Below are positions 1-64,000 of a stretch of DNA of 64,000 nt, piece after piece. The stretch covers positions 4,203 through 68,202 of the forward strand of contig JAKUOU010000019.1 of NCBI GenBank assembly GCA_022451065.1. The letters are read 5' to 3'. Both the position numbers and the translations under genes were made by a program. How positions within the stretch are numbered: the stretch's first letter is position 1; every line of letters begins with the position of its first letter. The notes under the pieces are model-generated. The model did no database searches. It worked only from the letters and a program-made list of their open reading frames with translations, and was not told where the DNA came from. Source of the stretch: Pedosphaera sp. GTDB lineage: Bacteria; Verrucomicrobiota; Verrucomicrobiia; Limisphaerales; UBA1096.

Positions 1-177
1 GCCGACCCTAGCCACGTGAGCGGGCAATTCACGGATGATCGCACCAGCTTCTTCCGGGGTGAGGTAACGCGGACTAGGCTTGTAAAACATGAAACCTAGC
101 GCATCCGCACCGGCCTCAACCGCCGCTTGAGCATCGTCGATCGACGTGATGCCGCAAATTTTTACCCTTACACTCAC
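1..177 (-). CDS. trpF: phosphoribosylanthranilate isomerase, N-terminal part (gene runs off the left edge)
   Basis: Not in ORF track because truncated. Manual reverse translation from GTG at 175-177 gives [59 protein letters not shown], the canonical PRAI N-terminus (KICGIT...GAD.LGF.F...SPR). Confidence 0.75.
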
Positions 178-286
178 GGCGCAAGACGCTATGCGGTCGG
201 GGCCAAGTGTCAACGCTCGTGTCGGATTCGGGTTGCGCCGGTGGGTGGGTCACGGCAAAACCAAGCGCGTGAGCGACAAATCGCTG

Positions 287-793
287 ATGGCCTATGTGGC
301 GCTGGGTGCAAACCTCGGCGACGCCGCAGCGACGTTGAGCGGTGCCGCCGCCGAGATCGCCGGCTGGTCGACGGGCTTGGCGCTTGGCTCGTCGCTTTGG
401 CGTACCGCGCCGGTAGATTGTCCGCCGGGTTCACCGCCGTTCCTCAACGCAGCGCTTGGCCTCCGGCCGAAATCTGTGACCACGCCGGAGTCGCTGCTCG
501 ATAATCTGTTGGCGCTAGAGAGCAAACTGGGCCGCACCCGCTCCGGCTTAGCCAACGCGCCGCGCGTGATCGACCTCGACCTGATTGCCTTTGGCACTGA
601 GACGCGCAATATGCCAACCCTGATTTTGCCCCATCCGGAAGCTCACAAGCGTTCGTTCGTCCTGGCTCCACTTGCCGAATTCGCTCCCGGCTTGGTGTTG
701 CCCGGTCAACAGCAAACAGTTTCCGGCTTATTGGCTAAGCTTGGTCAAGGGGGAGAGGTAGTGAAAACCGAACAACGTATCCTCTGCGTTTAA
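287..793 (+). CDS. folK: 2-amino-4-hydroxy-6-hydroxymethyldihydropteridine diphosphokinase (HPPK)
   Basis: ORF 146..793. I prefer ATG 287 (MAYVALGANLGD...), a typical HPPK N-terminus. DLDLI and LILPHPEAHKRSFVLAPLAE motifs present. Confidence 0.8.
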   Translation: MAYVALGANLGDAAATLSGAAAEIAGWSTGLALGSSLWRTAPVDCPPGSPPFLNAALGLRPKSVTTPESLLDNLLALESKLGRTRSGLANAPRVIDLDLIAFGTETRNMPTLILPHPEAHKRSFVLAPLAEFAPGLVLPGQQQTVSGLLAKLGQGGEVVKTEQRILCV

Positions 794-801
794 TTCTACC
801 A

Positions 802-1584
802 CTATTGCAATTTTGTCTCTGGGGCAATTTTCTTGAAGACGATGATGTGTTGACGGGGGAGCACGGAAATTGTCTGTACCCACTCGAGCGGGTGCGGCGT
901 AGCTTCCTTCATCACCTGCAGTTGCGACATCTTGTGCAGCAGCTTGATCGGCACGTTGGGATCCTCCATCCGATACTCGACGAACGCGATTCGCCCTCCC
1001 GGCTTTAGTGCGCGGCAGAGGTTCTGCAGCATCTCGTGCGGGTGTGAAAACTCGTGGTACACGTCGACCATTAACGCGAGATCGATGGTGTTGGTCGGTA
1101 AGTTGGGATTTTTGATCGTGCCGAGCACGCCTTTTACATTTTTTATCCCGAGCTTCCCGAGGTTCTGTGCGAGTAGCTCAAGCATCTCTGGCTGGATGTC
1201 CACCCCGTACACTGTGCCCTTAGGGCCGATGACTCGGGCGATGCGTCGCGCGAAGTATCCAGTGCCGACGCCGATGTCCGCCACGTTGTCGCCGGCCTTG
1301 AGCTTGAGCGAGCGGATGAGTGTCTGCGGTTTTTCCTCGACCTCGCGCGATGGGCGCTCGAGCCAGCCGGCACCAAGGTGCCCCATCACGTGGGCGATCT
1401 CGCGGCCCATATAGAATTTGCCAATGCCGTCGCGGCTGTGCTGCGCGCGGTGTGTATAGCGCGGATTCTCGGGATCAGCTCGGACGCCCTTGGCGTTGGT
1501 GGTTGGTTGGCCAAGCGCGGGGGGAAAGTGGCCAAACGCAAAAAAGGCGGCGACGATCGCGGGACAAATCCATTGGTGGTGCAT
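802..1584 (-). CDS. class I SAM-dependent methyltransferase with N-terminal signal/anchor
   Basis: ORF 802..1779. Internal ATG at 1584 (MHHQWICPAIVAAFFAF...) avoids overlap with the divergent gene. SAM motif I VADIGVGTGYF and LKPGGRIAFVEY. Confidence 0.75.
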   Translation of the reverse strand: MHHQWICPAIVAAFFAFGHFPPALGQPTTNAKGVRADPENPRYTHRAQHSRDGIGKFYMGREIAHVMGHLGAGWLERPSREVEEKPQTLIRSLKLKAGDNVADIGVGTGYFARRIARVIGPKGTVYGVDIQPEMLELLAQNLGKLGIKNVKGVLGTIKNPNLPTNTIDLALMVDVYHEFSHPHEMLQNLCRALKPGGRIAFVEYRMEDPNVPIKLLHKMSQLQVMKEATPHPLEWVQTISVLPRQHIIVFKKIAPETKLQ

Positions 1585-1671
1585 GTGGGTGAACCTACCC
1601 TCGGTCAGCCCAGATGACAAGCTGGCCCGCGCTTGGCTCGACCCAGTCGGCTTGATAGGGTAAGCCGCGTT

Positions 1672-2058
1672 ATGGCTTTGGCAAAAAAACTGTTGCACAC
1701 TCGCTACCGAGTCAACGATCTGGGGAAGACCGTTGATTTTTATAAAAACGTCCTTGGACTCGAGGAGGTGCGTCGGCACAAGTCACCGCGTGGCTCCGAG
1801 TTGGCCTTCCTGAAGGCGCCCGAGAGCGAGGAGACCATTGAGATTTGTCATTACCCCTCGAGCGGCCCGGTGGAGGTGCAGGAGGATCTCACGCATGTGG
1901 CCTTCGAGGTCGATAGCTTAGAAGAATTCGGCAAACACCTGGCCACGCTAGGGATGGAATACTCCGATGGCCCGACAATGAAGGAGACCGGCGGTGGCTT
2001 TGCCTTCATCGATGCTCCCGAGGGCTATGAAATCGAGTTGATAGAAATCGCTAAGTAA
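1672..2058 (+). CDS. gloA: lactoylglutathione lyase / VOC (glyoxalase I) family protein
   Basis: ORF 1633..2058 with ATG at 1672. LLHTRYRVNDLGKTVDFYKNVLGL... and C-terminal GYEIELIE resemble GloA. Size is about 128 aa. Confidence 0.65.
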   Translation: MALAKKLLHTRYRVNDLGKTVDFYKNVLGLEEVRRHKSPRGSELAFLKAPESEETIEICHYPSSGPVEVQEDLTHVAFEVDSLEEFGKHLATLGMEYSDGPTMKETGGGFAFIDAPEGYEIELIEIAK

Positions 2059-2091
2059 TAGGCGATTTTGGGGTTTTTATACTTCCAAACA

Positions 2092-2116
2092 ATACTTGAC
2101 TCAATCAGTCGGGATT
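2092..2116 (+). promoter_or_regulatory. candidate Rrf2/IscR-type operator overlapping a TTGACT -35-like hexamer
   Basis: ATACTTGACTCAATCAGTCGGGATT contains the inverted repeat GACT-N5-AGTC. By my alignment it matches 22 of 25 positions of the E. coli IscR type-1 consensus as I recall it (ATASYYGACTRWWWYAGTCRRSTAT). It lies 17 nt upstream of the Rrf2 ATG. Confidence 0.4.
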
Positions 2117-2132
2117 CTAGTTTTCCCTCGGC

Positions 2133-2594
2133 ATGAAACTGTCCCAACGAGGAGAGTATGCTTTGCGCGCATTGTTGGTCATGGGAATGAACCACGGCCC
2201 CGGTGTGATTCGAATTAAGGATATTGCGCAGCAGCAGAATATTCCACGCCGGTTTCTGGAGCAGATTCTCAACGATTTGAAGTCGGCTGGTTTTGTGCAA
2301 AGCAAGCGTGGTGTAGCCGGTGGCTACAGGCTGCAGCGCGGGCCGGATCAGATTTCGTTGGCTGATATCATCCGGCATTTGGAGGGGCCGTTGGCTCCCG
2401 TGGGGTGCGTGAGTGTGAATTATTATCAGCGCTGTTCCTGCCCCGACGAGGACAAGTGCGCGATCCGCAGCGTGATGCAGGAGGTGCGCGATGCTATCGT
2501 AGGCGTACTGGAGGGGGTGACGGTGGCGCATATGTGCGATCGTGTGCGCGATTTGCAGGGTCCACTGGTGAATCCATTGGACTATGTGATTTGA
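2133..2594 (+). CDS. Rrf2 family transcriptional regulator (Cys-rich, probably Fe-S binding)
   Basis: MKLSQRGEYALRALLVM..., wHTH segment IAQQQNIPRRFLEQILNDLKSAGFVQSKRGVAGGYRL, and cysteine cluster GCVSVNYYQRCSCPDEDKC. Confidence 0.85.
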   Translation: MKLSQRGEYALRALLVMGMNHGPGVIRIKDIAQQQNIPRRFLEQILNDLKSAGFVQSKRGVAGGYRLQRGPDQISLADIIRHLEGPLAPVGCVSVNYYQRCSCPDEDKCAIRSVMQEVRDAIVGVLEGVTVAHMCDRVRDLQGPLVNPLDYVI

Positions 2595-2612
2595 GCAGAT
2601 TTTTCTAGTCAT

Positions 2613-2622
2613 CTTGGCCAAG
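2613..2622. repeat. iterated palindrome copy (CGCTTGGCCAAGCG family), 10-bp core
   Basis: CTTGGCCAAG in the Rrf2/DUF1592 spacer. Its TTG is the ORF-track start at 2614. Confidence 0.9.
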
Positions 2623-4554
2623 TACAGTTGGGTGACCGGCTTATCGGTTAACAGTGGTATCAGATCGCTGCTTCTCGCTGCAGCGGCTTGGCTTTGTTTA
2701 TCCAATGGCGTACCCGCCGTGGAACATCCGGGATCAGCCCTTATCGAGCATTACTGCTTCGATTGCCACGATTCGGATACGCAGAAGGGGGAGGTGAATC
2801 TAGAGGCGGCGCTGGGGGCCAAGCCGCTGGTCAAGAATATCGATTTGTGGAGAACGGTCATCGCGCGGGTCGAGAACAGCGATATGCCGCCCAAGAAAAA
2901 ACCGCAACCCAAGCCGGAGGAGAAAAGGCGGTTGCTGAATTGGCTCGACTCGGAAATTAACCACTTTGACTACAGCCAGGTTGACAATCCTGGTTATGAG
3001 CCGGTTCGTCGACTGACGCATATCGAGTTCAGCAACACGCTGCGCGACCTGCTGGGTTTGGACCTGAATTTGGTTGCTGATTTCCCGATCGATCTTAGTG
3101 GAACAAGCGGGTTCGAGAACAGCGCGAACACCCTCTTTCTGCAGCCAATTTTGATGGAACGCTATCTTAGCGCGGTTGACAAGGCGGTTGAAGCGGCGGT
3201 GCCGCTGGATAGCAAACCGAGCGCGGACTCGCCCGTTTTTGTCGCTTGGCCAAGCGGGAAGATTTCTGAAAGAGAGGCAGCGCGGAAAATTATCGACCGC
3301 TTTATGCTTCGTGCGTTTCGGCGGCCACCGACTGAAGATGAGGCGAAAGAACTTCACGGGGTTTATGCTCGTTCGCGAAAGGCGGGTGAAAGCTTTGAGA
3401 TGGCAATCCGCCGAGCACTTGGGGCCGCCTTGGTTTCACCCGCGTTTCTGCTGAAGTCGGAAATTGTCCAGAACACAGATGAGTCGTATCAGGTCAGCGA
3501 CTACGAACTGGCCTGTCGGCTGTCATACTATCTTTGGGCGAGTATGCCCGATGACGAACTGTTCCAACTCGCCGCCGAGAAGCGCTTGGCCAAGCCGGGG
3601 GTGCTCGCGGAGCAGGTCACCCGCATGCTTGCCGATCCCAAGGCGGGAACTCTGGGTAGCGTATTTGCAGCGCAGTGGCTTGGCTTTGACGCGTTGGGAG
3701 TGCGCGTGCGGCTAGATCCCATTGACAATCCTTGGTGTACCGACACGTTGATGGCAGCGATGAAAAAGGAGTCGGCGATGGTTTTTACAGCACTTGTTCG
3801 GGAGAATCGTCCGCTGAAAAACCTAATCGATTCGAAGAATACTTTTGTGAACGAGGAGTTAGCCAAGTTTTACAAATTGAAAGGCGTTAAAGGGACGGAG
3901 ATGCGTCGGGTGTCGCACACGGACAAACGGCGCTACGGTCTCTTTGGCCAAGCATCGGTATTGGCGGTGACCTCATCGCCACATCGTACGAGTCCGATTC
4001 GCCGTGGGGAGTGGATTTTGAGTTCGCTACTCGGCACGCCGCCGCCGCCGCCGCCGCCCGATGTCGGTGAACTGGACGAGGAAATTGAGGAAAACCGCAA
4101 ACTCACTTTCCGCCAAAAACTTGAGATGCACAGCAAGGATTCACGCTGCAACTCCTGCCATCGTGAGATGGATCCGCTTGGTTTTTCTTTGGAAAACTAC
4201 GATTGGTTTGGTCGGTGGCGAACCAAGAGCCGCGGCCGCACGATTGATGCCAAGGGCAAACTGCCGAGTGGCACAGAATTCGAGGGACCGGTTGGTTTAC
4301 GCGAGGTGATCCTTGCTGAGAAGTTGGACGACTTGGCTCGTCAGGTGATCCGTAAAATGCTTTCCTACGGGCTTGGCAGGCAACTCGAGTATTACGATGA
4401 GCCTGCAGTACGTAAAATCCTCGCGACGTTCAAAAAAGACGGTTACCGGATGCAAACACTGGTGCGTGAGGTGGTGAAAAGTTACCCATTTCAGTTCCGC
4501 AAAAACCGGGTGGAACCGGACAACGAATCGAAGGAAGTAGTGAAAAATGGCTAA
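2614..4554 (+). CDS. DUF1592/DUF1588/DUF1595-type planctomycete-specific (PSD) protein with CxxCH motifs
   Basis: 646-aa ORF. N-terminal signal, CFDCHDSDTQKGEVNLE and CNSCHREMDPLGF motifs. Sits directly upstream of a DUF1552 gene, the usual pairing. Start uncertain: TTG 2614 lies inside a palindrome copy and GTG 2632 is an alternative. Confidence 0.8.
   Translation: MAKYSWVTGLSVNSGIRSLLLAAAAWLCLSNGVPAVEHPGSALIEHYCFDCHDSDTQKGEVNLEAALGAKPLVKNIDLWRTVIARVENSDMPPKKKPQPKPEEKRRLLNWLDSEINHFDYSQVDNPGYEPVRRLTHIEFSNTLRDLLGLDLNLVADFPIDLSGTSGFENSANTLFLQPILMERYLSAVDKAVEAAVPLDSKPSADSPVFVAWPSGKISEREAARKIIDRFMLRAFRRPPTEDEAKELHGVYARSRKAGESFEMAIRRALGAALVSPAFLLKSEIVQNTDESYQVSDYELACRLSYYLWASMPDDELFQLAAEKRLAKPGVLAEQVTRMLADPKAGTLGSVFAAQWLGFDALGVRVRLDPIDNPWCTDTLMAAMKKESAMVFTALVRENRPLKNLIDSKNTFVNEELAKFYKLKGVKGTEMRRVSHTDKRRYGLFGQASVLAVTSSPHRTSPIRRGEWILSSLLGTPPPPPPPDVGELDEEIEENRKLTFRQKLEMHSKDSRCNSCHREMDPLGFSLENYDWFGRWRTKSRGRTIDAKGKLPSGTEFEGPVGLREVILAEKLDDLARQVIRKMLSYGLGRQLEYYDEPAVRKILATFKKDGYRMQTLVREVVKSYPFQFRKNRVEPDNESKEVVKNG
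3243..3256. repeat. iterated palindrome copy, 14 bp, inside CDS
   Basis: CGCTTGGCCAAGCG read as V-A-W-P-S-G. Confidence 0.9.
3584..3595. repeat. iterated palindrome copy, 12 bp, inside CDS
   Basis: GCTTGGCCAAGC read as R-L-A-K-P, a different frame from the copy 340 bp upstream in the same gene. Confidence 0.9.
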
Positions 4555-9677: not shown

Positions 9678-9706
9678 CGTAACCTTGCCGCTTGGCCAAG
9701 CGTAAC
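9678..9706 (+). promoter_or_regulatory. candidate ECF-type promoter (GTAAC-N17-CGTAAC) upstream of the ECF sigma gene
   Basis: cGTAACc at 9678-9684 and CGTAAC at 9701-9706 resemble the AAC-N16/17-CGT architecture of ECF promoters. The spacer is occupied by a palindrome copy. The predicted leader is very short, so the call is weak. Confidence 0.3.
9689..9702. repeat. iterated palindrome copy, 14 bp, intergenic
   Basis: CGCTTGGCCAAGCG 20 nt upstream of the sigma-factor ATG. Second copy in the same 112-bp spacer. Confidence 0.9.
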
Positions 9707-9721
9707 TTAGATTTTTGCTGT

Positions 9722-10330
9722 ATGGTTGACAGGAACGATCCCGATGTGGCCCTGATGTTGAGGGTGAAAGGGGGAGACTTGTCGGCCTATGAGGAATTGG
9801 TGGAGAAGTTTAAGCAGCCGGTGATGAACCTGATTTACCGGCTGATCAACGACCTCGACGAGGCGGAGGACATTGCTCAGAACGTCTTTATCCAGGTCTG
9901 GAAAACCCGCGAACGCTACGAGGTGGCCAGCAAGTTCACCACCTGGCTTTTCACCATCGCCCGCAACCTTGGTCTGAACGAGATTCGGCGGCGCACGCGG
10001 CATCCGGCCGACTCACTGGATGAGCCGCGTCCCGACAACGAATCCCAGCCGCTGCGCGTGGTGGAGGATGCCGCCAGCCCGATCCCTGCTGATGCCACTC
10101 TCAGTGCCGAACTGTGCGCCAAGGTCGAGGAGGCTCTGATGGATCTGCCGGAGAAACAGCGTACCGCGCTGCTGCTCTGTCGTGAGGGCGGTGTCAGCTA
10201 CGAGGAAATTGCCGATGTGATGGGCGGAATCTCTCTGACGGCAGTAAAATCGATCATTTTTCGAGGCCGTTCGGTGCTCAAAAGCCGCCTGAAACCGTAC
10301 CTGAAGTCAGGCGAATGGCAAAAAAAATGA
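9722..10330 (+). CDS. RNA polymerase ECF-type sigma-70 factor
   Basis: ORF 9692..10330. ATG 9722 preferred because TTG 9692 lies inside the palindrome. Region 2 (AEDIAQNVFIQVW, FTTWLFTIARN) and region 4 (SYEEIADVMGGISLTAVKSIIFRGR). Confidence 0.85.
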   Translation: MVDRNDPDVALMLRVKGGDLSAYEELVEKFKQPVMNLIYRLINDLDEAEDIAQNVFIQVWKTRERYEVASKFTTWLFTIARNLGLNEIRRRTRHPADSLDEPRPDNESQPLRVVEDAASPIPADATLSAELCAKVEEALMDLPEKQRTALLLCREGGVSYEEIADVMGGISLTAVKSIIFRGRSVLKSRLKPYLKSGEWQKK

Positions 10331-10379: not shown

Positions 10380-10871
10380 ATGAACCAACCCGAGTTTGAG
10401 AACCTGTTGCAAACGGTGCACACGCGTGACTTAACCGATGCCGAGTTGGCCAAGCTGGAGCATTGGCTGGCAGCGAACCCTGACGAGCAGGACGCGTGGG
10501 CAGCACTGGACCGTCTGCTGGTCGCGCTGCCTGATGCCCCGGTGGCGACCAATTTCACCGCTCGCGTGCTGGACAAAGTCCGCCGAACCGAGGCCACCCG
10601 CCAGGCGCTTGGCCAAGCGTGGTGGCGGAAGCTCCTCGCCCCGCAATTTCGTCCCATCCAAATCGCTGCCGCAGCGGCGCTCGCGATGGTCATCGGTGGC
10701 GTCGGCTACCAGTCGCACCTCACCCTGAACCGGGCGGAGATGGCTGCAAGCCTGCATGAGGTGGCAGCCATCGCCGAGATGGTCCCCGGGTTGTTGAGTG
10801 ACTTCGAGGCCATCGAGGCCATCCAACAGGCCGACCCGATCGACGAGGAACTCTGGGCCGCCCTTAAGTAA
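10380..10871 (+). CDS. putative anti-sigma factor (single-pass membrane protein)
   Basis: Immediately downstream of the ECF sigma gene. One TM segment (IQIAAAAALAMVIGGVGY). No strong family motif, so the call rests on context. Confidence 0.55.
   Translation: MNQPEFENLLQTVHTRDLTDAELAKLEHWLAANPDEQDAWAALDRLLVALPDAPVATNFTARVLDKVRRTEATRQALGQAWWRKLLAPQFRPIQIAAAAALAMVIGGVGYQSHLTLNRAEMAASLHEVAAIAEMVPGLLSDFEAIEAIQQADPIDEELWAALK
10606..10619. repeat. iterated palindrome copy, 14 bp, inside CDS
   Basis: Read as A-L-G-Q-A in the anti-sigma gene. Confidence 0.9.
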
Positions 10872-20259: not shown

Positions 20260-20273
20260 CGCTTGGCCAAGCG
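20260..20273. repeat. iterated palindrome copy, 14 bp, between convergent stop codons
   Basis: TAG(20256-20258)-c-CGCTTGGCCAAGCG-cggg-TCA(20278-20280, recJ stop). Confidence 0.9.
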
Positions 20274-23114: not shown

Positions 23115-23122
23115 TTCGGGTT

Positions 23123-23138
23123 GCGCTTGGCCAAGCGC
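23123..23138. repeat. iterated palindrome copy, 16 bp, intergenic
   Basis: GCGCTTGGCCAAGCGC, 9 nt upstream of the terC-family start codon on the minus strand and downstream of the secDF stop. Confidence 0.9.
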
Positions 23139-23217
23139 GGCTTATACCCGGAGTAGTCTTAATAGGAAAGCCGGCCGTGGGCTTATGCTGGCGCTCTTCA
23201 GTAAATCTGGCCAACCC

Positions 23218-26151: not shown

Positions 26152-26240
26152 GCCTCTGAGGAAGCGTAGCCAATTATGGCCTGCTATAGAGCCATGCCTT
26201 GAATAATAGTCGACTTTTTGTAGTGTCGGCAGGTCTGCTT

Positions 26241-29648: not shown

Positions 29649-29651
29649 GCC

Positions 29652-34126: not shown

Positions 34127-34140
34127 CGCTTGGCCAAGCG
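34127..34140. repeat. iterated palindrome copy, 14 bp, divergent intergenic region
   Basis: Lies between the PVC dehydrogenase-domain gene (start 34042) and the GlcF-like gene (ATG 34160). Confidence 0.9.
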
Positions 34141-35491: not shown

Positions 35492-35616
35492 ATTTGCCGA
35501 TTGATGGCGCCGCGCTGCAGAGAATTGGCTCATCAACTTCTCGTGCTTTTTTGTGGTTCACGGCATTTACCTGGGTGCACTTAATCGCTATTTTGGCGGT
35601 GTTCCGCTTTTTTTGG

Positions 35617-41872: not shown

Positions 41873-41898
41873 GCTTGGTCAAGCGCTTGGCCAAGCGC
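41873..41898. repeat. tandem 1.5-2 copies of the iterated palindrome
   Basis: GCTTGGTCAAGC (one mismatch) overlaps GCGCTTGGCCAAGCGC (41883-41898). It ends 6 nt upstream of the GT2 ATG. Confidence 0.9.
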
Positions 41899-43630: not shown

Positions 43631-45235
43631 TTGTCATCCAAAAAAACAGAGAGTGTCAGCAAGTCGAAGTTGTGGTTTTGGCTGCGGATGGCTTGGTTGG
43701 TGGCGTACGCGCTGATGCTGGTGTCGATGCTGAATAACTTGGCGCGGCTGAACACCGATGCCATCTCCTACATGCGCGTCGCCGAATATTGGTCGATCGG
43801 TAACCTTGGCTTCGCGGTGAACGGTTACTGGGGGCCGTTGCTGAGTTGGCTGATGGTGCCGTTTTTATGGCTGGGCGTTGAGCCGTTGTTCGCTGCTAAA
43901 TTGGCGATGCTGATTTCTGGCGCGGTGTTTTTTCACGGCAGCCTGTTTCTCGTTCGCTCGGTTGGTCTGCGTTTGTCCGATGAGTTGATCGTGGCCTGGG
44001 TGCTGGCACTGACGATTCCCGGATGGATGTCGAATCACGTGACGCCGGACCTGCTGGTCGCCGGATTGATGGCCTTTGCGCTTGGCCAAGCGGTGGCGCC
44101 GGATTGGCTGGCTAATCGCAAGCGGGCACTTGGCACCGGCGCGACTTGGGGTTTGGCCTATCTGGCCAAGGCGGTGGCGCTGCCGGTCGGCGTGGTGGTC
44201 AGCGTTCTGTTGGCACTGTGCTGGCGGCTTGGCCAGGCGGAGAACCGGCGAGCGGCTTGGCGACAGTTGGGCGTGTCGCTTGGCCTGTTGGCACTGGTAG
44301 CGGTGCCTTGGATCACATTGCTGTCGTTGAAATATGACAAGCCGACCTTCTCGACTTCCGGCCCAATCGCCCATGCTGTTGTCGGCCCGGGAAAAGACAG
44401 GCCGGCACCACATCCGTTCGGCAGCATGATTAACAAACCGGACACGGGAAGGGTGACGGGATGGGAGGATCCGAGCCGGATGGAATACGACTACTGGTCG
44501 CCATTCGCGAGCGGCGAAAATTTTTCGCATCAACTCTCGCTAATTGGCCGCAACACCAAAACGGTGTTTCAATTATTGGCGGCCTTCGACGGAGTCGGGG
44601 CATTGCTTAAATGGTTCGGAGTCGGGACATTGGTTTTAGGCTTGGCACTATTCGCAAAACGGCCGTGGTCGAAAAACTGGCTGGCCGATCGCTGGCGATG
44701 GATGGTCATCCCGCTGATCTGCCTCGGCGGCATTTACCTGCCGGTTTATGTGATGCCGGTGGATCAGCGTTACTTCTATTTATTCCTGCCGCTGGTCATG
44801 ACTCTCACACTTGGCCTCGTTTCACCATTTTTCGCGAAGAAAATGCAAACCGGCTTGGTTTGGATGTTGATCTTCCTGCTGCCATTATTGTGGCGTGTAC
44901 CTGCGACATCCTTTGCTGGATCCTTGGCTCAAGACTTGGCGAAGCGGATGGATAGTGTCGGGATGGTAGGGCCATTTGTCGGCTCGACATTTTCGCCGGA
45001 GGGTCATCGGCTTGGTTTGTACGTTGCCTGGCATCTCGGCCAGCCATGGCATGGCGACGTCAGGCCAGCTTCGCTTGAAGCGTACAAACATTCCGGAGCC
45101 AGGTTTACGATCGCCATTGACGATTCGCCGTTGGCCAAGCAACTGGATGCAGATTCGGCTTTCAAAAATGTGAGTGTTAAATTAGGTGAAAAAGGATTCC
45201 TTGAGGTTTACGAGATTCAGGCGAGTCAGCCTTAG
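43631..45235 (+). CDS. polytopic membrane protein, GT-C (GT39/ArnT-like) glycosyltransferase candidate
   Basis: 534 aa. About 10 or more TM helices in the N-terminal two thirds and a soluble C-terminal domain. Context is GT2 + MTase. Family assignment is by architecture only. Start is TTG 43631 or ATG 43688. Confidence 0.5.
   Translation: MSSKKTESVSKSKLWFWLRMAWLVAYALMLVSMLNNLARLNTDAISYMRVAEYWSIGNLGFAVNGYWGPLLSWLMVPFLWLGVEPLFAAKLAMLISGAVFFHGSLFLVRSVGLRLSDELIVAWVLALTIPGWMSNHVTPDLLVAGLMAFALGQAVAPDWLANRKRALGTGATWGLAYLAKAVALPVGVVVSVLLALCWRLGQAENRRAAWRQLGVSLGLLALVAVPWITLLSLKYDKPTFSTSGPIAHAVVGPGKDRPAPHPFGSMINKPDTGRVTGWEDPSRMEYDYWSPFASGENFSHQLSLIGRNTKTVFQLLAAFDGVGALLKWFGVGTLVLGLALFAKRPWSKNWLADRWRWMVIPLICLGGIYLPVYVMPVDQRYFYLFLPLVMTLTLGLVSPFFAKKMQTGLVWMLIFLLPLLWRVPATSFAGSLAQDLAKRMDSVGMVGPFVGSTFSPEGHRLGLYVAWHLGQPWHGDVRPASLEAYKHSGARFTIAIDDSPLAKQLDADSAFKNVSVKLGEKGFLEVYEIQASQP
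44079..44092. repeat. iterated palindrome copy, 14 bp, inside CDS
   Basis: Read as A-L-G-Q-A in the GT-C-like membrane protein. Confidence 0.9.
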
Positions 45236-45283: not shown

Positions 45284-47752
45284 ATGAACGGTTTGATTGG
45301 GAATGTTTTTACCTGCGCCGGATTGCTGTTAGTTTCGTTTGATTCGGTGCAAGCCGGGTTGACGACGGAACAGAAAGCCAAGCTGCCATCGCCGGCCAAG
45401 CACGCGATCAGTTTCGCCAGGGACATTTCGCCGTTGCTGGAAAAGAGCTGTACCAAGTGTCATGGCAAAGGCAAAGCCAAGGGCGGTTTCAGCATCGAAA
45501 CACGTGAAAAGTTGCTTCTCGGCGGTGACTCGGGCGGGGCGGTGGTTATCGGCAAGAGCGTCGACAGCTACTTGGTCGAGTTGATTTCCGGCATCGACCC
45601 TGAAAATGTCATGCCGCAAAAGGGCTCAAGGTTGACCCCGGAACAGGTCGGCTTGATTCGTGCCTGGATTGACCAGGGATTGCAGTGGGAAGAGGGGGCG
45701 ACATTTGCCAAGGCGCCGGTGCTGAACCTTAGCCCGCGCCGGCCGGAGTTGCCCGGTGACGAGGGCGGCCATCCGGTCGATCGCATTTTGGCGTCGTACT
45801 TCGCCAGGTACGGAGTGAAGACCAGCAGGGTGGTTTCGGATCGGCTTTTTGCCCGACGCGTGTATCTCGACACGATTGGCCTGTTGCCGCCAGTGAAGGA
45901 ACTGGACGAGTTTGTTGCCAGCACAGCGAAGGGCAAACGCCGCAAGTTGGTTCGCCGGTTGCTTGCCGATCACAAGCCGTACGCCGAGCATTGGTTGGCG
46001 TTTTGGAACGACATTCTGCGCAACGACTATGCTGGCACCGGCTTCATAGACGGTGGCCGCAAGCAGATCACCGGCTGGCTTTATGGTTCGCTCTATCAAA
46101 ACAAACCGTACGACCAATTTGTGTACGAACTGATCAACCCAAAGGAGCACTCGCGGGGCTTCACGAAGGGTATCGTTTGGCGCGGCGTGGTGAACGCCAG
46201 TCAAAAACCCCCGATGCAAGCGGCGCAACACATCTCGCAGATTTTCATGGGCGTGAACCTCAAGTGTGCCTCATGCCACGACAGTTTCATCAACGATTGG
46301 TCGCTTGCCGATGCCTACGCGTTGGCCAGTGTCTACGCTGACAAGCCATTGGAGATGGTTCAGTGCGACAAGCCGACGGGCGAGATTTCCGACGTTCGGT
46401 TCATCCATCCGGAGCTGGGCGCGATTGACCCGAAGGCGGATCGAGCCAAACGCATCGAGCAGTTGGCCAAGGCGGTGACGAGTCCGAGGAATGGCCGCCT
46501 CAGCCGCACAATTGTCAACCGGCTTTGGGCGCGGTTCCTCGGCCGTGGCTTGGTCGAGCCGGTTGATGAAATGGAGAACAAGTCGTGGCACACCGACCTG
46601 CTCGACCTGCTGGCAAGCGATCTCATCGACAACGGATACAATCTCAAGTTCACCATGGAGCAAATCATGACGTCGCAGGCGTACCAGTTGCCGGCGGTGA
46701 ATGGTGCCGAGCAGGAGGAAAAGAATTACGTTTTTCGGGGGCCACTGGTTCGCCGTATGAGCGCCGAACAGTTTGTCGATGCCATCGCGACAATCACCGG
46801 CAACTGGAAGCCGTCGCCGGCGAAGAAGATCAAGTTTGATGGGGCGAATCTCGCCGGCGTGAGGACGGGATTCGACCGGAATGATCTGCCACGGGGCAGA
46901 TGGATCTGGAGTTCGGCCGAGGCGGCCAAGGGCGTTGAGCCGGGCACGTCCTATTTTCGCAAACGCTTCGAATTGCCGCATAAGCCCAAGACGGCGAATG
47001 TCATCGCCGTGGCGGACAATTCATTCGTTCTGCTTGTGAACCATCGTACCGGTATAGCCGGCAAAAACTGGGAGGAACCGAAGTTCCACAACTTGGCCAG
47101 TCGATTCAAGAAAGGCAAAAATCTTGTCACGGTTTTAGCCACGAACGAAGGGAGCGGAAAAAACCCCGCGGGACTTTGGCTGGGCATTCGGTTTCAGTTT
47201 GCCGATGGCTCGACGATGGACATGGTGTCCGACCAGTCATGGAAAGTCAGTACCAAGAATTCTGATGGTTGGAACACGTCGGAGTTCGACGACACCACAT
47301 GGCGGGAGGCGTCGGAACTAGGAGGGATGGACATGGCTCCGTGGGGCTTGGCCAAGCGGATGAAAATGAGCGGCTCAGAACTGGCGTTTGGCGGGCGGTT
47401 TCGCGAGTCACTGCAAAACAAGACGGCGCTGACCACGGCGCTTGGCCGGCCGAACCGAGAGCAGGTGACCACCAAGCGCCCATCTGTCGCCACCACGCTG
47501 CAGGCGCTCGCGTTGACTAACGGCGAGGTCCTTTCGACGCTCATCAAGGACGGAGCCACCGCCCTGGCCGGCGAGGGCGGAGAGCAGCAGGGTTTGGCTA
47601 AGCGGGTGTTTCTGGCGGCGCTTGGCCGGTCGCCGAATCAAGCAGAATCGACAATGTTGGCAGAGCTGAGCAGTGGAGATAACGGGGCCGAGTCGGTCGA
47701 GGACGTGCTTTGGGCAGTGACGATGCTGCCGGAGTTTCAACTCATTTACTAA
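45284..47752 (+). CDS. PSCyt1/DUF1549/DUF1553 domain protein with an inserted beta-sandwich-like module
   Basis: CTKCHGKGKAKGGFSIE, CASCHDSFINDWS, C-terminal DUF1553-type end LPEFQLIY. No adjacent DUF1501 gene. Confidence 0.8.
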   Translation: MNGLIGNVFTCAGLLLVSFDSVQAGLTTEQKAKLPSPAKHAISFARDISPLLEKSCTKCHGKGKAKGGFSIETREKLLLGGDSGGAVVIGKSVDSYLVELISGIDPENVMPQKGSRLTPEQVGLIRAWIDQGLQWEEGATFAKAPVLNLSPRRPELPGDEGGHPVDRILASYFARYGVKTSRVVSDRLFARRVYLDTIGLLPPVKELDEFVASTAKGKRRKLVRRLLADHKPYAEHWLAFWNDILRNDYAGTGFIDGGRKQITGWLYGSLYQNKPYDQFVYELINPKEHSRGFTKGIVWRGVVNASQKPPMQAAQHISQIFMGVNLKCASCHDSFINDWSLADAYALASVYADKPLEMVQCDKPTGEISDVRFIHPELGAIDPKADRAKRIEQLAKAVTSPRNGRLSRTIVNRLWARFLGRGLVEPVDEMENKSWHTDLLDLLASDLIDNGYNLKFTMEQIMTSQAYQLPAVNGAEQEEKNYVFRGPLVRRMSAEQFVDAIATITGNWKPSPAKKIKFDGANLAGVRTGFDRNDLPRGRWIWSSAEAAKGVEPGTSYFRKRFELPHKPKTANVIAVADNSFVLLVNHRTGIAGKNWEEPKFHNLASRFKKGKNLVTVLATNEGSGKNPAGLWLGIRFQFADGSTMDMVSDQSWKVSTKNSDGWNTSEFDDTTWREASELGGMDMAPWGLAKRMKMSGSELAFGGRFRESLQNKTALTTALGRPNREQVTTKRPSVATTLQALALTNGEVLSTLIKDGATALAGEGGEQQGLAKRVFLAALGRSPNQAESTMLAELSSGDNGAESVEDVLWAVTMLPEFQLIY
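47346..47357. repeat. iterated palindrome copy, 12 bp, inside CDS
   Basis: Read as G-L-A-K-R. Confidence 0.9.
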
Positions 47753-51481: not shown

Positions 51482-52486
51482 ATGAACTCACGAATCCTAT
51501 TGTCAGTGGTGGCAGGGCTTTTGATGCTTGGCCTAACGCACAGCTCCGCCCAGGAAGAGCCTTTCACCGTCAAGAAAAACGGCGACAACTATCGCGTCGA
51601 GATTGATGGTAAGCTGTTCACCGAATACATCCCTACTGGATACAACAAGCCGGTGCTTTACCCGGTCATCGGTCCGCACGGCGTCAGCATGACGCGCAAT
51701 TACCCGTTCAAGGAGGTCGAGGGCGAAGCCAAGGATCACGTGCATCATGCGTCGTTGTGGTTCACGCACGGCGAAGTCAATGGCATCAGCTTTTGGCACA
51801 ACGGCAAAAACACGGGAAAAATCATCCCGGCCGAGCTGGTCCGTGCCGAGGGCGGTCGCCGCGGCTCGATCGTCTCGAAAAACAACTGGGTTGGTCCGGA
51901 CGACAAGGTTATCTGCACCGACCGGACATCGATCAGTTTCTATAAAGCGCTCGGTGGCACATTCGTGTCGTACAGCGTGACCGTCTTTGCATCGGAAGGG
52001 GACGTGACCTTTGGCGACACCAAGGAGGGCAGCATGGGTATCCGCACGCATCCGAACCTGCGCCTGACCAACGGCAAGGGTGTCACCACTGCCAACGGCC
52101 ACGCGCTCAACAGTGCCGGGCACAAGGACAAGGAACTCTGGGGCAAGCGCGCCAAGTGGGTCGATTACTGGGGCGAGATCGACAACCACACGGTCGGCGT
52201 TGCCATATTCGATCACCCGGACAATCTGCGCCACCCGACCTGGTGGCACGCCCGGGACTACGGTCTGGTTGCCGCCAACCCGTTCGGCATTCACAACTTC
52301 GAGGGCAAGAAAAAGGGCGTGGGCGACTTCAAGCTGAAGAAGGGTGAACAGCAGCAGTTCCTCTACGGCATCCTTTTCCACGAGGGCGACGCCCAGGCCG
52401 CTGACATTGCCGGCTCATACGCCAAATGGGTCGATGCCGTTGCCGCCTACAAGGTCAGGGCAGCGGAGCAAACTGGGAACAACTAG
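51482..52486 (+). CDS. PmoA-family / DUF6807-like secreted protein
   Basis: Signal peptide. KPVLYPVIGPHGVSMTRNYP and DHVHHASLWFTHGEVNG blocks as I recall them for this family. Confidence 0.6.
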   Translation: MNSRILLSVVAGLLMLGLTHSSAQEEPFTVKKNGDNYRVEIDGKLFTEYIPTGYNKPVLYPVIGPHGVSMTRNYPFKEVEGEAKDHVHHASLWFTHGEVNGISFWHNGKNTGKIIPAELVRAEGGRRGSIVSKNNWVGPDDKVICTDRTSISFYKALGGTFVSYSVTVFASEGDVTFGDTKEGSMGIRTHPNLRLTNGKGVTTANGHALNSAGHKDKELWGKRAKWVDYWGEIDNHTVGVAIFDHPDNLRHPTWWHARDYGLVAANPFGIHNFEGKKKGVGDFKLKKGEQQQFLYGILFHEGDAQAADIAGSYAKWVDAVAAYKVRAAEQTGNN

Positions 52487-52497
52487 CTTGGCCAAGC
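52486..52497. repeat. iterated palindrome copy, 12 bp, between convergent stop codons
   Basis: Starts on the G of the TAG at 52484-52486. Followed by gcgggc and TCA (52504-52506, cysE stop). The right flank GCGCGGG is the same as in the copy at 20260. Confidence 0.9.
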
Positions 52498-58349: not shown

Positions 58350-59128
58350 CTGCCGAAAAGGCGGACGAAATTTTCTTCCACGCGCCTGGCCAAGTCGTCG
58401 GGCGCTTGGCCAAGCGCCTCGGCGGCGGCCTCGTTCACGGCGGCGATGTTGGCTGGGTGGTTGACCGCTTGGCCAAGCGGATGAGTGACGCGATCTTCAG
58501 GCAGTCCTTGGTCGGGGGCGTCGGTCTCGATGAGTAGTCGGTCGGTCGGCACTCGGCGGAAGGTGTCGCGCTGGCGCGTTTTGCGTTCATGCGCGAAGGC
58601 ACCGGGAAAGCTGAAGTAGGCGCCGATTGAGGCCAACGGCTCGATCATCTCCGCCGGGCCACCGTAGCTGTGAAGTAGAAAACCGCGCCTAGGCAATGGG
58701 CTGTTGCGGAGGAGATCGTGGAGGCGCCCCCAAGTCTTGAGACAATGAAGGCTTGCGGGGAGATTACGCTCGGCAGCCAGGCTGAGTTGGGCGGTGAAAA
58801 CTTTCTCCTGTTCGTCGTAACTCAGGCCGGGCTTCCAGCGGTCGAGGCCGATTTCACCGACAACACTTGGGCAAGCGTCGAGATGTTGCTCGAGTTTGGC
58901 CAGCCAACTTGGCGTGCGCTCGTGGACGAACCAAGGGTGCAGGCCGAAGCTGGGCATCACACAGTCGTGGCGACTGGCCAGGTCGGCGACCGTGGGCCAG
59001 TCGCTCTCGCGGGTGCCGTTGACGACCATTTTGGACAGGCCAACAGCGGTACAATCGGAGATCAGTTCGTCCTGTTGATTGCCGAATCGGGCATCCTGCA
59101 AATGGTTGTGCGCATCGAACAGCCGCAT
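58346..59128 (-). CDS. tatD: TatD family metal-dependent hydrolase
   Basis: MRLFDAHNHL..., GEIGLD, LHSY, ETDAPD. Confidence 0.85.
   Translation of the reverse strand: MRLFDAHNHLQDARFGNQQDELISDCTAVGLSKMVVNGTRESDWPTVADLASRHDCVMPSFGLHPWFVHERTPSWLAKLEQHLDACPSVVGEIGLDRWKPGLSYDEQEKVFTAQLSLAAERNLPASLHCLKTWGRLHDLLRNSPLPRRGFLLHSYGGPAEMIEPLASIGAYFSFPGAFAHERKTRQRDTFRRVPTDRLLIETDAPDQGLPEDRVTHPLGQAVNHPANIAAVNEAAAEALGQAPDDLARRVEENFVRLFGS
58401..58418. repeat. iterated palindrome copy, 18 bp, inside CDS
   Basis: GGCGCTTGGCCAAGCGCC, the longest perfect copy. Lies in the 3' end of tatD (A-L-G-Q-A on the minus strand). Confidence 0.9.
58464..58479. repeat. iterated palindrome copy, 16 bp, inside CDS
   Basis: CCGCTTGGCCAAGCGG, 46 bp from the previous copy. 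A third degenerate copy (CCTGGCCAAGTC) lies at about 58385-58396. Confidence 0.9.
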
Positions 59129-60255: not shown

Positions 60256-60271
60256 GTGCCTTAGGCCATAC

Positions 60272-61717: not shown

Positions 61718-61782
61718 GCCCGGAATTGAGCAGACCGTGACCTCTGTCGTCAACTAAAACCCGGGATTTACTTCCGAGGAGT

Positions 61783-62205
61783 TTATTCGCCGGTGATATG
61801 GATGTGGATGCGGCGGATGTGAGGGTGGGTGCGGTGTTCCCAGAGGTAGATACCCTGCCAGGTGCCTAGTACCATTGAACCGCCGGAGATGGGGATGCTG
61901 AGGCTGACGTTGGTCAGCGCGGTGCGGATGTGGGCCGACATGTCATCGTCTCCCTCGTAGTTGTGCTCGTAAACCGGGTCGGCGTCTGGAGCCAGGCGCG
62001 AGAAGATCGACTCAAGGTCGGTGCGTACGCTGGGGTCGGCGTTTTCCTGGATGAGCAGCGAGGCGGAGGTGTGCCGGACGTGTAGTGTCAGTAAGCCAGT
62101 CTTGAAACCACTCGCCGAAACCAGTTCGCCCACCTCGCGGGTGATCTCGTAAAACCCACGGCTGCGTGTGGCGACGCTCAACTCCTCGGCGTATTGCCCG
62201 AGCAT
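61783..62205 (-). CDS. YjbQ/UPF0047 family protein (secondary thiamine-phosphate synthase)
   Basis: HVRHTSASLLIQENADPSV, MSAHIRTALT, GTWQGIYLWEHR. Confidence 0.85.
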   Translation of the reverse strand: MLGQYAEELSVATRSRGFYEITREVGELVSASGFKTGLLTLHVRHTSASLLIQENADPSVRTDLESIFSRLAPDADPVYEHNYEGDDDMSAHIRTALTNVSLSIPISGGSMVLGTWQGIYLWEHRTHPHIRRIHIHITGE

Positions 62206-62210
62206 GGGGT

Positions 62211-63995
62211 TTATTTTTCTACGCCCAGAATTTTTTGCAGTTCGGCGTTCTTGGTGTGACCAGCTGCGAGCGCCTTTTCGTAGTGGAACTTGGCCAGGGC
62301 GGTGAAGGGCGGTTTTTGAGTGGCGTACACAACGGCGAGGTTGTGGTGGGCCTCGGCGTGGCCCGGCTTGATCTGGAGCGCCTTACGTAGTGCTGTCTCG
62401 GCGGCTTTGCGCTGGCCAAGGTTGTTGAGCGCCGAGCCAAGGAAGTGCTGTGCGTTGGCATCCTCCGGATTCAGTTTGACCGCCTTGGCCAGGTAATCGC
62501 GTGCCTCCTCATATTTTTTTTGACGGTAACGAAGTGTGCCAAGCAGTGACAGAGAGAAGGTGTCGTTTTCGTTGTTCTTCAGCGCCCGCTCCAGGCTGGT
62601 CTCGGCGCCGTCATAGTTGCCCTGTTCCATTTGTGCCATGGCGAGGCTACCAAGCGTCAGTGGGTTTTCCTCGTCCAGTTTGAGGACGTGCAGAAACTTC
62701 TGTTCCGCCTCACCGTACTTGGCCTCGACGAGGGCTGCCTGGCCCGCCTTGAAATCAGCCGCGCCGCCCTCCGGCAGGGTAGCGACCTTGGCCTGAAGTG
62801 TGTTGGCAGGTTGATCTCCTGTTTTTGGTTCGGCGAACAGTTTCTTCTCCTCGTCGGTATAGGGGATTTTCTCAGCTTCAAGAATCTCGAGTCGCGATCT
62901 CAGGGTGTCGAGCCGGTTCTGCAGTTCAGCCACTTGGGCCTGCTCGGCTCGATCCTTTTTTCGCCAGTTCAAGATGCCGGAAAGGGCCTTCCTCTTGCTG
63001 GCGGGGTTGGTATTTATTCGCTCGGCCTTGGCAAGGCGCTTCTCAAGCGAGTTGATATAGTCGCGCATTTCTTTTTCGCGGGATCCTTTCTGGAGGGCTT
63101 TGAGCTGATCCTCAAGCGAGTCGTTGCTGCTTTGTGAGGAAGCCAGGTTACTTGAGGTTTCCTTTAACTGGCTGTTACTTTTGGCCAGTTGTTTCTCGAG
63201 GGAACCGACCTTGGTCTCGAGATTCTTTTCGCGGTTGCCTTTTTTGAATGATTTGAGCTCCTCCTCGAGAGAGGCTTTATCGTTCTTGAGCGCGGCAATA
63301 TTGCCCGAAACTTTCTCCAACTCGCCCTGGTTGTCCGCCATTTTCTTTTGGAGCGCCTCAACTTCAGTTTGAAGTTCTTTTTCGCGGTTCCCCTTTCTGA
63401 ACGACTTGAGTTCCGACTCAAGGCTTTTGTTCGTCGTTTTGAGTGATGCCAGTTCCTTTTCGGTTGTCTCGAGGGACTCCTTGCTGTCCGCCAGTTGTTT
63501 CTCGAGGCGTTTGGCCTGGCGGTTGTTTGCCTCTGACTTTGCGCTCTTCACCTCCTGCTGCGATTGCTCGAGTGCTTCTCTGGTTTTTTTTGCGTCGGCT
63601 TGGGCCTTGGCCAAGTTGGCCTGTGCCTTTTCGGTTTCTGCTGTTGCCTTGGCCAAGCCGGCGTTGGCGTCCTTGAACTGTGCGGTGGCCTTGTCGATGG
63701 CGCCCTTGAGGTTGGTGTTTTCCTGGCGAAGGCCGGAGAGGTCGCTTTCCAGCTTGGCCAGTTGCTTGGTCTCCTCAGGCGACGGCACGGCAGAAAGGGC
63801 TTCCTTGAGTTTGGCATCCTTGATGACGATCGCGTTTTCGAGCGACTCAACCTTTCGCTTGAGAATGGCGATCTCGCGGCGTGCGGCGGCGGGGTCAAGG
63901 GTAGCCGGTTTGTCCAAGGTTGCCTTTACATCCTCCGTAGCTTTGGCTCCGATTTCCTTGAGCTTCTGGTCCAGGTACTTGATGCGAAAACTCAC
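62211..63995 (-). CDS. long coiled-coil protein with C-terminal TPR repeats
   Basis: 594-aa ORF. GTG at 63993-63995 lies 5 nt from the window edge, so the true N-terminus may be outside the window. Residues 1-380 are Lys/Glu/Ala-rich heptad-like. Residues 415-590 are TPR-like (AEAHHNLAVVYATQ). Confidence 0.6.
   Translation of the reverse strand: MSFRIKYLDQKLKEIGAKATEDVKATLDKPATLDPAAARREIAILKRKVESLENAIVIKDAKLKEALSAVPSPEETKQLAKLESDLSGLRQENTNLKGAIDKATAQFKDANAGLAKATAETEKAQANLAKAQADAKKTREALEQSQQEVKSAKSEANNRQAKRLEKQLADSKESLETTEKELASLKTTNKSLESELKSFRKGNREKELQTEVEALQKKMADNQGELEKVSGNIAALKNDKASLEEELKSFKKGNREKNLETKVGSLEKQLAKSNSQLKETSSNLASSQSSNDSLEDQLKALQKGSREKEMRDYINSLEKRLAKAERINTNPASKRKALSGILNWRKKDRAEQAQVAELQNRLDTLRSRLEILEAEKIPYTDEEKKLFAEPKTGDQPANTLQAKVATLPEGGAADFKAGQAALVEAKYGEAEQKFLHVLKLDEENPLTLGSLAMAQMEQGNYDGAETSLERALKNNENDTFSLSLLGTLRYRQKKYEEARDYLAKAVKLNPEDANAQHFLGSALNNLGQRKAAETALRKALQIKPGHAEAHHNLAVVYATQKPPFTALAKFHYEKALAAGHTKNAELQKILGVEK
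63021..63425 (-). repeat. three tandem 51-aa (153-bp) coding repeats inside the coiled-coil gene
   Basis: SLESELKSFRKGNREKELQTEVEALQKK..., SLEEELKSFKKGNREKNLETKVGSLEKQ... and SLEDQLKALQKGSREKEMRDYINSLEKR... start at residues 191, 242 and 293. Confidence 0.6.
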
Positions 63996-64000
63996 AACTG

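Follow-up and report, generated by a model that had tools for sequence, protein, structure and literature searches.

The highly iterated palindrome (HIP) of cyanobacteria called HIP1, GCGATCGC, is conserved and hyperabundant (PMC5861425), and the words assigned to the HIP class are perfect palindromes that exceed expectation by at least about 15-fold and are present in approximately 1000 to 2000 copies per Mb (PMC4390886, PMC5861425). The uptake sequences of Neisseria and Pasteurellaceae have been co-opted in terminators, and their copies are concentrated in hairpins at gene ends (PMC1852404). The word examined here, with the 16-bp palindromic consensus GCGCTTGGCCAAGCGC and the 8-bp core TTGGCCAA, is iterated throughout a 64,000-nucleotide stretch of Pedosphaera sp. 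DNA (contig JAKUOU010000019.1; hereafter the window) and is shared by a clade of uncultured marine Verrucomicrobiota. An initial annotation of the window had proposed a genome-wide iterated word of the HIP1, uptake-sequence, or repetitive extragenic palindrome (REP) kind. The 16-bp dyad unit, its presence across a clade, and its preference for the zone directly after stop codons were not visible to that annotation. The word represents the same class of phenomenon as the HIP words and uptake sequences; what is new is the phylum, the sequence, the longer dyad unit, and the marked position after stop codons. A full-text literature search, whose coverage is incomplete and whose outcome is absence of evidence only, returned no description of this word or of any HIP-like element in Verrucomicrobiota.

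Exact searches locate 52 copies of the core in the window, compared to a mean of 1.55 and a maximum of five in dinucleotide-preserving shuffles. This density of 810 copies per Mb, or about one per kb, represents a 34-fold excess over the shuffles, and in pooled clade DNA the core stands about 39-fold above a first-order Markov expectation. The core extends to the 10-mer CTTGGCCAAG in 26 places, to the 12-mer GCTTGGCCAAGC in 13, and to the 14-mer CGCTTGGCCAAGCG in 10 (none in the shuffles). Four of the 14-mers lie within perfect palindromes of 16 to 18 bp (Table 1), and one-off half copies are also numerous. The initial annotation had counted about 49 cores, slightly too few, whereas its counts for the three longer words and its four extended palindromes agree with ours. 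The starts it listed are accurate for all but one copy, the 14-mer at 58466 (not 58465), whose 10-mer begins at 58468 (not 58467). An observed/expected ratio near 1 after codon and dinucleotide correction, which it had named as grounds for abandoning the word, is not what we find in the window, given the shuffles above and those of coding sequence described below. Across the clade, the core is present in about 8 to 10 copies per 10 kb, which would imply a few thousand copies per genome.

The unit being repeated was defined with a pooled set of 625 kb, comprising the window and 68 enriched metagenome contigs. Its consensus is a dyad of the half-sites GCGCTTGG and CCAAGCGC, with information graded from the center outward; the core is 50% GC and the 16-mer 69% GC. 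When the left half GCGCTTGG is used as an anchor, the next eight bases match CCAAGCGC at 86, 76, 66, 64, 69, 56, 60, and 48%, and the match drops to background directly past 16 bp. Only 18 of 96 perfect 16-mers have complementary flanking bases, and the G-left/C-right combination is depleted. Within the arms, tables of paired positions deviate little from the product of their marginals and show no preference for alternative complementary pairs. A maximal-order Markov expectation roughly equals the observed counts, which indicates that the arms extend independently of each other, and not that the word is expected. Taken together, the 16 bp of sequence-specific information, the independent decay of the arms, and the lack of preference for alternative complementary pairs point to recognition of duplex DNA in a sequence-specific manner, probably by a symmetric dimer, rather than to selection for a hairpin structure.

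Core spacing is Poisson-like, with a coefficient of variation (CV) of 0.82 to 1.03. In the window, the gaps range from 42 to 3834 nucleotides (CV 0.82), an irregularity that the initial annotation had also seen and that excludes an array of clustered regularly interspaced short palindromic repeats (CRISPR). One local arrangement does recur, in which the cores of a pair are spaced by exactly 12 bp and have GCGC in common (TTGGCCAAGCGCTTGGCCAA). This 20-mer is found 13 times, for example at positions 3174 to 3209 of contig L068 and 50499 to 50517 of the window, and the pairing creates a second palindrome, CCAAGCGCTTGG, with 64 copies in the 625 kb. A tandem array of a 12-bp unit was considered and ruled out, as no array is longer than two cores.

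The genes of the window are of Planctomycetes-Verrucomicrobia type (PSCyt/PSD, DUF1501, DUF1552, and DUF7133), together with the housekeeping genes ftsK, recJ, secDF, recG, glnD, ispD, and ispF. Relatives were collected by a RecJ protein scan with one genome per species, which yielded 28 loci; because these were chosen via the protein, word density at these loci is unbiased by word-based selection. All 28 are from marine metagenome-assembled Verrucomicrobiota, with RecJ identities of 74 to 98%, and the gene order of the window is nearly always kept. TTGGCCAA is the commonest palindromic 8-mer in 22 of 22 high-GC loci (GC 0.55 to 0.64), at 3 to 17 copies per 10 kb, and has an intermediate density of 2.8 per 10 kb in a genome of 51.5% GC. 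Five low-GC sister genomes (GC 0.40 to 0.43; L012, L013, L014, L016, and L019) have the gene order of the window and RecJ identities of 74 to 77%, with the word almost lost (0.5 to 1.6 copies per 10 kb; 7 copies vs. 2.3 expected). Their orthologous sites carry mainly third-position changes to A or T, such as TTAGCAAA and CTTGCAAA. In L016, the ABC/recJ spacer retains 10 of the 16 bases of the word and resembles a decayed copy, which hints that the word may be ancestral and may have been lost as the low-GC clade drifted toward AT. No replacement word was found in these sister genomes, where GCTTAAGC occurs 7 times vs. 1.6 expected, partly at orthologous positions.

A separate scan of JGI metagenomes with the 16-mer returned at least 120 loci. 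Among the 120 matches listed, 68 are enriched (5 to 28 cores per 10 kb), all but one with a GC content of 0.51 to 0.63, and most of the others have one or two copies; absolute densities are biased upward in this set because its members were picked for holding the 16-mer. The IMG/VR collection of viral sequences gave 27 matches to the 16-mer, mostly single copies, and only one contig (L030) passes the enrichment filter, weakly. Carriage by phages was rejected, as no phage is clearly enriched and the viral matches are close to the number expected by chance on a rough estimate. A tetranucleotide signature was also tried for assigning metagenome contigs to the clade and set aside as poorly discriminating. 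One word-bearing RecJ locus (L020; CATMIM010000076.1) was deposited within a “Candidatus Poseidoniales archaeon” metagenome-assembled genome (MAG). Its RecJ is 89% identical to that of the window, and the contig is probably a mis-binned piece of Verrucomicrobiota DNA from the same clade.

Conservation was scored on 12 window copies in a syntenic 26 kb, with other 8-mers as controls and P values obtained by resampling. Averaged per site, the word is matched by an identical 8-mer in 0.544 of the relatives, compared to 0.246 for the controls (P = 0.00025). Both clear spacer copies (20260 and 23123) stand out as conserved islands amid variable sequence, the latter across most aligned high-GC relatives; at the former, 68% of aligned relatives share the exact core 8-mer, and compensatory changes were not seen. 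Spacer copies that have drifted in relatives likewise show uncompensated changes. The word is present in at least one species in 22 alignment columns, 13 of which have it in more than half of the species and six in 15% or fewer, and the latter indicate that gains are continuing. The comparison of orthologous loci, which the initial annotation had suggested, reveals both conservation and gain.

Differences between species in the presence of a copy are substitutions and never an indel. At position 18567, for example, most relatives (10 of 17) have TTGGCCGG (reading TTGGCCGGG) where the window has TTGGCCAAG, a double change that converts GGG (Gly) to AAG (Lys). The commonest deviation at old sites is T1 to C, the synonymous exchange of TTG for CTG. 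The word spreads by point substitution, not by insertion of an element. A longer mobile element, including the ends of miniature inverted-repeat transposable elements (MITEs) or insertion sequences, was rejected in agreement with the initial annotation: flanks are at background, repeat finding recovers only the word with unrelated flanks, and gains occur without indels.

Within coding sequence, the window holds 48 core copies, vs. 7.35 ± 2.7 after within-gene shuffling of synonymous codons and 2.29 after randomization of codon order. The corresponding number of 14-mers is 7, compared to 0.09 after shuffling. A composition artifact is ruled out by these two shuffles and by the dinucleotide shuffle. 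The word is tolerated mainly in two frames, with 25 of the 48 copies in phase TTG-GCC-AA (Leu-Ala-Lys, LAK), 19 in phase.TT-GGC-CAA (Leu-Gly-Gln, LGQ), and only four in phase ..T-TGG-CCA (Trp-Pro). Protein sequences are shifted accordingly by about fourfold, with 42 LAK tripeptides in the window vs. 10.7 expected and 25 LGQ tripeptides vs. 6.4 expected. Specifically, TTGGCCAAG encodes 20 of the 42 LAK tripeptides, where multiplying the three codon frequencies would give about 5%.

Genes in the 625 kb were called with a simple codon-usage caller, whose starts are only approximate. About 86% of copies are inside genes. Copies of the 14-mer per 10 kb number 2.65 in coding sequence and, for spacers, 40 (convergent), 9.6 (tandem), and 2.7 (divergent). 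Of 46 convergent spacers, 14 (about 30%) contain the core. By a measure based on stop codons, which is independent of start calls, a 12-mer begins 0 to 19 nucleotides past the stop in 45 of 453 genes (about 10%), approximately 11 times the share of sequence that this zone represents, and the longest copies are concentrated 0 to 20 nucleotides after stops. In spacers of at least 70 nucleotides, 23 of 33 stop-side copies are 2 to 18 nucleotides from the stop and start-side copies are scattered, which indicates that the clustering is not a mere effect of short spacers. The initial annotation had assigned five of the ten window 14-mers to intergenic DNA, a somewhat generous figure. Those at 20260 and 23124 are clear, and that at 9689 qualifies once a TTG start is discounted; for those at 34127 and 41884, the 5′ ends of the genes concerned are uncertain, and 34127 falls within a gene according to a public gene call.

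These characteristics can be compared with those of described systems. HIP1 and its alternates (GGGATCCC, TCGATCGA, CAGGCCTG, and others) are, like the present word, short perfect palindromes with about 1000 copies per Mb at tens-fold over expectation. Each is distributed over genes and spacers, propagates by substitution, is retained at orthologous sites, and has enriched one-off variants; each is also lineage specific and can be replaced or lost in sublineages (PMC4390886, PMC5861425). Of the features by which HIP words are recognized, we observe hyperabundance, dispersal by substitution through coding and noncoding DNA without conserved flanks, and conservation above control words; the host is not a cyanobacterium, and the word is not GC-rich in the HIP sense (at least 75% GC). 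HIP words are also distributed periodically at 10 to 90 kb; in the 64-kb window, the present word shows Poisson-like spacing at the kb scale. A further HIP feature is a methyltransferase of the same genome that recognizes part of the word, and none was found among the approximately 50 window genes or in about 0.6 to 0.9 Mb of clade DNA, which is a fraction of one genome. The sequence is unrelated to the HIP words, although CAGGCCTG is also centered on GGCC, and the word differs in phylum, in its 16-bp rather than 8- to 10-bp specificity, in its core of 50% GC, and in its strong post-stop preference.

The uptake signal sequences (USS) of Pasteurellaceae and DNA uptake sequences (DUS) of Neisseriaceae also share several features with the word, including a density of about one per kb, use of the least costly reading frames, an effect on peptide composition, and occurrence in related species (PMC1852404, PMC1939737). 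In addition, intergenic copies of both concentrate at gene 3′ ends in hairpin form, although the hairpin of the word is weak and lacks a T-run. However, USS and DUS are asymmetric, with a core of 9 to 12 nucleotides, and can form a hairpin only where two copies are inverted and a T-run follows, whereas a single copy of the present word is itself a palindrome. A further attribute of USS and DUS is preferential uptake by a competent host equipped with competence machinery, and none of the window genes encodes a competence protein. REP elements and bacterial interspersed mosaic elements (BIMEs) resemble the word in being palindromic and in favoring convergent and tandem 3′ spacers over divergent ones. 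They are extragenic, imperfect palindromes of 20 to 40 nucleotides mobilized by REP-associated tyrosine transposases (RAYTs), whereas the word is a 16-bp unit that is mostly coding, with no RAYT in the window, and the REP-like option of the initial annotation fails on this count. REP, MITE, CRISPR, and compositional origins are excluded.

Its density, dispersal, spread by substitution, frame bias, peptide effect, orthologous conservation, and lineage specificity group the word with HIP1 and its alternates and with USS/DUS, and on this basis a “self” tag is favored. With a probability of roughly 0.45, we propose that the word may be a “self” DNA word of the HIP1/USS class whose reader is a dimeric protein and whose copies persist through selection or molecular drive, with a subset used or best tolerated at gene 3′ ends. 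In the most likely mechanism, which has been established for USS/DUS and is currently a proposal for HIP1, the tag would favor uptake and/or recombination of DNA from the same lineage. The TGGCCA/GGCC core would possibly be methylated, and copy number would be maintained by selection or by molecular drive tied to the reader. A subset of copies may have been co-opted at gene 3′ ends, or may simply be best tolerated there, as with the uptake sequences in Neisseria and Pasteurellaceae terminators.

Several observations weigh against this proposal. First, the uptake sequences described so far lack dyad symmetry and HIP words span 8 bp, and a 16-bp dyad fits a DNA-binding dimer at least equally well. 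Second, the spacing of cores is no more even than random. Third, a model based purely on uptake or drive gives no reason to expect the tight placement after stops. Fourth, no competence, uptake, or methylation gene has been tied to the word, which is weak evidence from a small sample. As the initial annotation had noted, no gene in the window explains the word: none of the approximately 50 encodes a DNA methyltransferase, Vsr, restriction enzyme, RAYT, or competence protein (competence genes beyond the window were not searched), and two methyltransferase-fold proteins resemble small-molecule enzymes. Finally, a marine methylome study reported neither methylated motifs nor methyltransferase genes in its five Verrucomicrobia genomes, which may or may not belong to the clade, and 5-methylcytosine is poorly detected by its method (PMC8919816). 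A narrower form of the “self” tag proposal holds that the word is an uptake or recombination signal of a naturally transformable clade, read by a dimer as a 16-bp dyad and given a second, dedicated role at about one gene end in ten. We consider this form doubtful; if true, it would represent the first HIP/USS-class system outside cyanobacteria and Proteobacteria, and its reader would be a symmetric DNA-binding protein rather than a methyltransferase or pilin.

One alternative is the methylation-centered model for HIP words (Elhai 2015), in which an orphan methyltransferase would act on TGGCCA or GGCC, and methyl-dependent repair, or selection for strand discrimination at intervals of about 1 kb, would ratchet near-matches to full sites. 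The core does hold classical methyltransferase targets, the outermost positions deviate most and the inner six least at conserved sites, and about one copy per kb equals the value given for repair-linked sites (PMC4390886). In the methylome study, TGGCCA is called a candidate 5-methylcytosine motif in at least one marine MAG (PMC8919816). In pooled clade DNA, the 6-bp palindromes AGTACT, GGGCCC, GAGCTC, CAGCTG, and AACGTT are three- to sixfold under-represented by a third-order Markov model, which suggests that restriction-modification pressure exists in the lineage. By the same model, TGGCCA is the most over-represented 6-bp palindrome (2.3-fold).

However, a 16-bp specificity exceeds any usual methyltransferase site, and bare TGGCCA without its T/A flanks is only about 1.5-fold enriched (our own arithmetic, with the expectation from base composition). 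The variants that deamination would generate, TTGGTCAA/TTGACCAA and TTGGCTAA/TTAGCCAA, show no depletion, their observed/expected ratios being 1.8 to 3.7 (1.8 to 2.7 for TTGACCAA and 3.7 for TTAGCCAA), and conserved sites show no excess of C-to-T changes. A search by tblastn with M.HaeIII, Dcm, Dam, and Vsr queries, supplemented by motif patterns and by Pfam analysis of six candidates, revealed no 5-methylcytosine methyltransferase, Dam-type, or Vsr homolog and no amino-methyltransferase motif in the sampled 0.6 to 0.9 Mb, although a sample of this size provides only weak evidence. Very-short-patch repair of the Dcm/Vsr type was likewise rejected, given the undepleted T:G variants and the lack of a Vsr homolog in that sample. 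The restriction-modification core that the initial annotation had pointed to is thus only a lead. A purely methylation-driven model is weaker here than the “self” tag, and we regard it as unlikely.

A binding site for an abundant dimeric protein that organizes the nucleoid or chromosome is another alternative. The logic would be that of ParB, Noc, SlmA, or MatP applied genome-wide, with copies selected for structure or segregation and not for DNA exchange. The parS, Noc-binding, SlmA-binding, and matS sites are dyads of 12 to 16 bp that dimers read on double-stranded DNA, and the word is also a dyad of such length, with independent half-sites and a sharp end. The 13 core pairs that share GCGC suggest side-by-side binding, and a nucleoid role is favored for HIP1 by Xu et al. 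(PMC5861425). The described sites are regionally confined, whereas the word is dispersed and would number in the thousands. Known site-specific nucleoid proteins have tens of sites per genome, not thousands, which counts against this model. It also leaves unexplained the placement 2 to 18 nucleotides after stops and the 15-fold difference between convergent and divergent spacers, and spacing shows no regularity at the scale of the window. We judge a nucleoid-protein site to be rather unlikely, yet it remains a live rival, as does an RNA hairpin at 3′ ends.

In the latter case, the primary function would be at the RNA level, with a GCGCUU-GGCC-AAGCGC hairpin that ends or stabilizes transcripts after stops and with coding copies being secondary. 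The roughly 11-fold excess within 20 nucleotides after stops, the occupancy of convergent spacers, and the concentration of the longest copies in the same zone are all as this model would have it. Moreover, consensus terminator-like sites are present in the window only at chance level, so another signal could serve in their place. However, most copies are in genes. The hairpin is only weakly stable (14-mer, −3.5 kcal/mol; 16-mer, −6.9 kcal/mol), does not surpass shuffled sequence when folded in context (z-scores near zero), and is not followed by a U-tract. Compensatory changes are lacking, and the stem does not continue past 16 bp; such extension is, if anything, avoided. Long convergent spacers can also hold a copy beside each stop and, between the two, a separate GC hairpin with a T-run. 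On the energies, z-scores, lack of covariation, and chance-level terminator-like sites, the word was rejected as a hairpin or terminator, and a primary RNA function is improbable. The separate hairpin, about 45 nucleotides long, GC-rich, and followed by a T-run (GGAGTGCGSCGRCAGAGCGWAGCGSCGVCGCCGCTTTCS), was seen at positions 1020 to 1075 of contig L162 (the L168 locus reversed) and 3650 to 3700 of L123, and may be a real terminator or a separate repeat family.

That there is no distinct feature, only a by-product of codon and amino-acid usage or the remains of MITE or REP elements, is scarcely credible: the frames do encode common residues (Leu, Ala, Lys, Gly, and Gln) and GCC, GGC, and AAG are preferred codons, but the coding excess survives synonymous shuffling, spacer copies are conserved and flanks are not, copies are gained without indels, and the excess is missing from the low-GC sister clade, whose orthologous genes at this locus are identically ordered.

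Table 1. Copies of the word in the window, with longer extensions listed before isolated cores.
Feature	Position	Context
Perfect 16-bp consensus GCGCTTGGCCAAGCGC	23123..23138	Spacer between secDF (stop 23218) and TerC-family gene (start 23114)
Perfect 16-mer	41883..41898	Between fur-family and glycosyltransferase genes, or 5′ end of the glycosyltransferase gene (true start uncertain)
18-bp perfect palindrome GGCGCTTGGCCAAGCGCC	58401..58418	In 3′ part of tatD, phase.TT GGC CAA
16-bp palindrome CCGCTTGGCCAAGCGG	58465..58480	In tatD; core starts 63 nt after core of copy 58401
14-mer, 15 of 16 consensus bases	20260..20273	Fills 19-nt spacer between convergent stops of ABC_tran_2 gene (20258) and recJ (20278)
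14-mer	9689..9702	Divergent spacer between glnD (start 9609, minus strand) and ECF sigma-factor gene
14-mer	3243..3256	In PSCyt/PSD-family gene 2719-4554, rare Trp-Pro phase
14-mer	10606..10619	In DUF4880 (anti-sigma-like) gene; present in 4 of 4 aligned relatives
14-mer	34127..34140	51 nt into Fer4/CCG gene, start per public gene call on L001
14-mer	44079..44092	In hypothetical gene 43631-45235
12-mer GCTTGGCCAAGC	52486..52497	Overlaps TAG stop of DUF6807 gene; 17-nt convergent spacer
12-mer GCTTGGCCAAGC	3584..3595	Coding
12-mer GCTTGGCCAAGC	47346..47357	Coding, in PSCyt/PSD gene
Core specific to window genome	18567..18574	Absent from 17 of 17 aligned relatives
Other cores TTGGCCAA (n = 38), part 1 of 2	Starts 1507, 2614, 3944, 7136, 10446, 13032, 14725, 16637, 17457, 20536, 23938, 27772, 31559, 31892, 31953, 33714, 35045, 35411, 35657	
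Other cores TTGGCCAA (n = 38), part 2 of 2	Starts 37004, 38045, 38119, 38980, 39640, 40381, 40843, 41384, 42949, 45131, 46463, 50507, 53969, 54028, 54844, 56371, 60152, 63607, 63649	

The perfect copy between secDF and the TerC-family gene is about 10 nucleotides upstream of the latter's start codon, and neither a yybP-ykoY riboswitch nor any other Rfam family was detected at positions 23100 to 23160. Known RNA families and tRNAs were likewise not found anywhere in the window. The 14-mer in the glnD spacer is accompanied by a one-off copy, CCGCTTGGCCAGGCGC, at 9649, which is 39 nucleotides upstream of copy 9689. The TTG within TTGGCCAA is the first start codon of two long open reading frames (2614 to 4554 and 9692 to 10330), of which the start at 9692 is judged spurious, and in this way the word can produce false or over-extended gene starts in annotation of the clade. 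Paralogous families are dense in the window. There are three sets of Planctomycete-type cytochrome/PSD genes (2614 to 5905, 26199 to 31360, and 45284 to 47752), two of which adjoin a DUF1552 or DUF1501 gene, as well as two large DUF7133/HEAT proteins (32051 to 34042 and 35553 to 38562).

Work on hyperabundant HIP-type palindromes has been confined almost entirely to cyanobacteria, where methylation and repair, nucleoid structure, and DNA uptake are still debated as possible functions. An independent instance with a different sequence in another phylum lets these ideas be tested. The low-GC sister clade that lacks the word is a natural control, and a contrast of gene content between the two groups could point to the reader protein. 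The word can also serve as a binning marker for contigs of the clade, as with the contig filed under an archaeal MAG, and its placement after stop codons represents a 3′-end signal that can be checked in existing marine metatranscriptomes.

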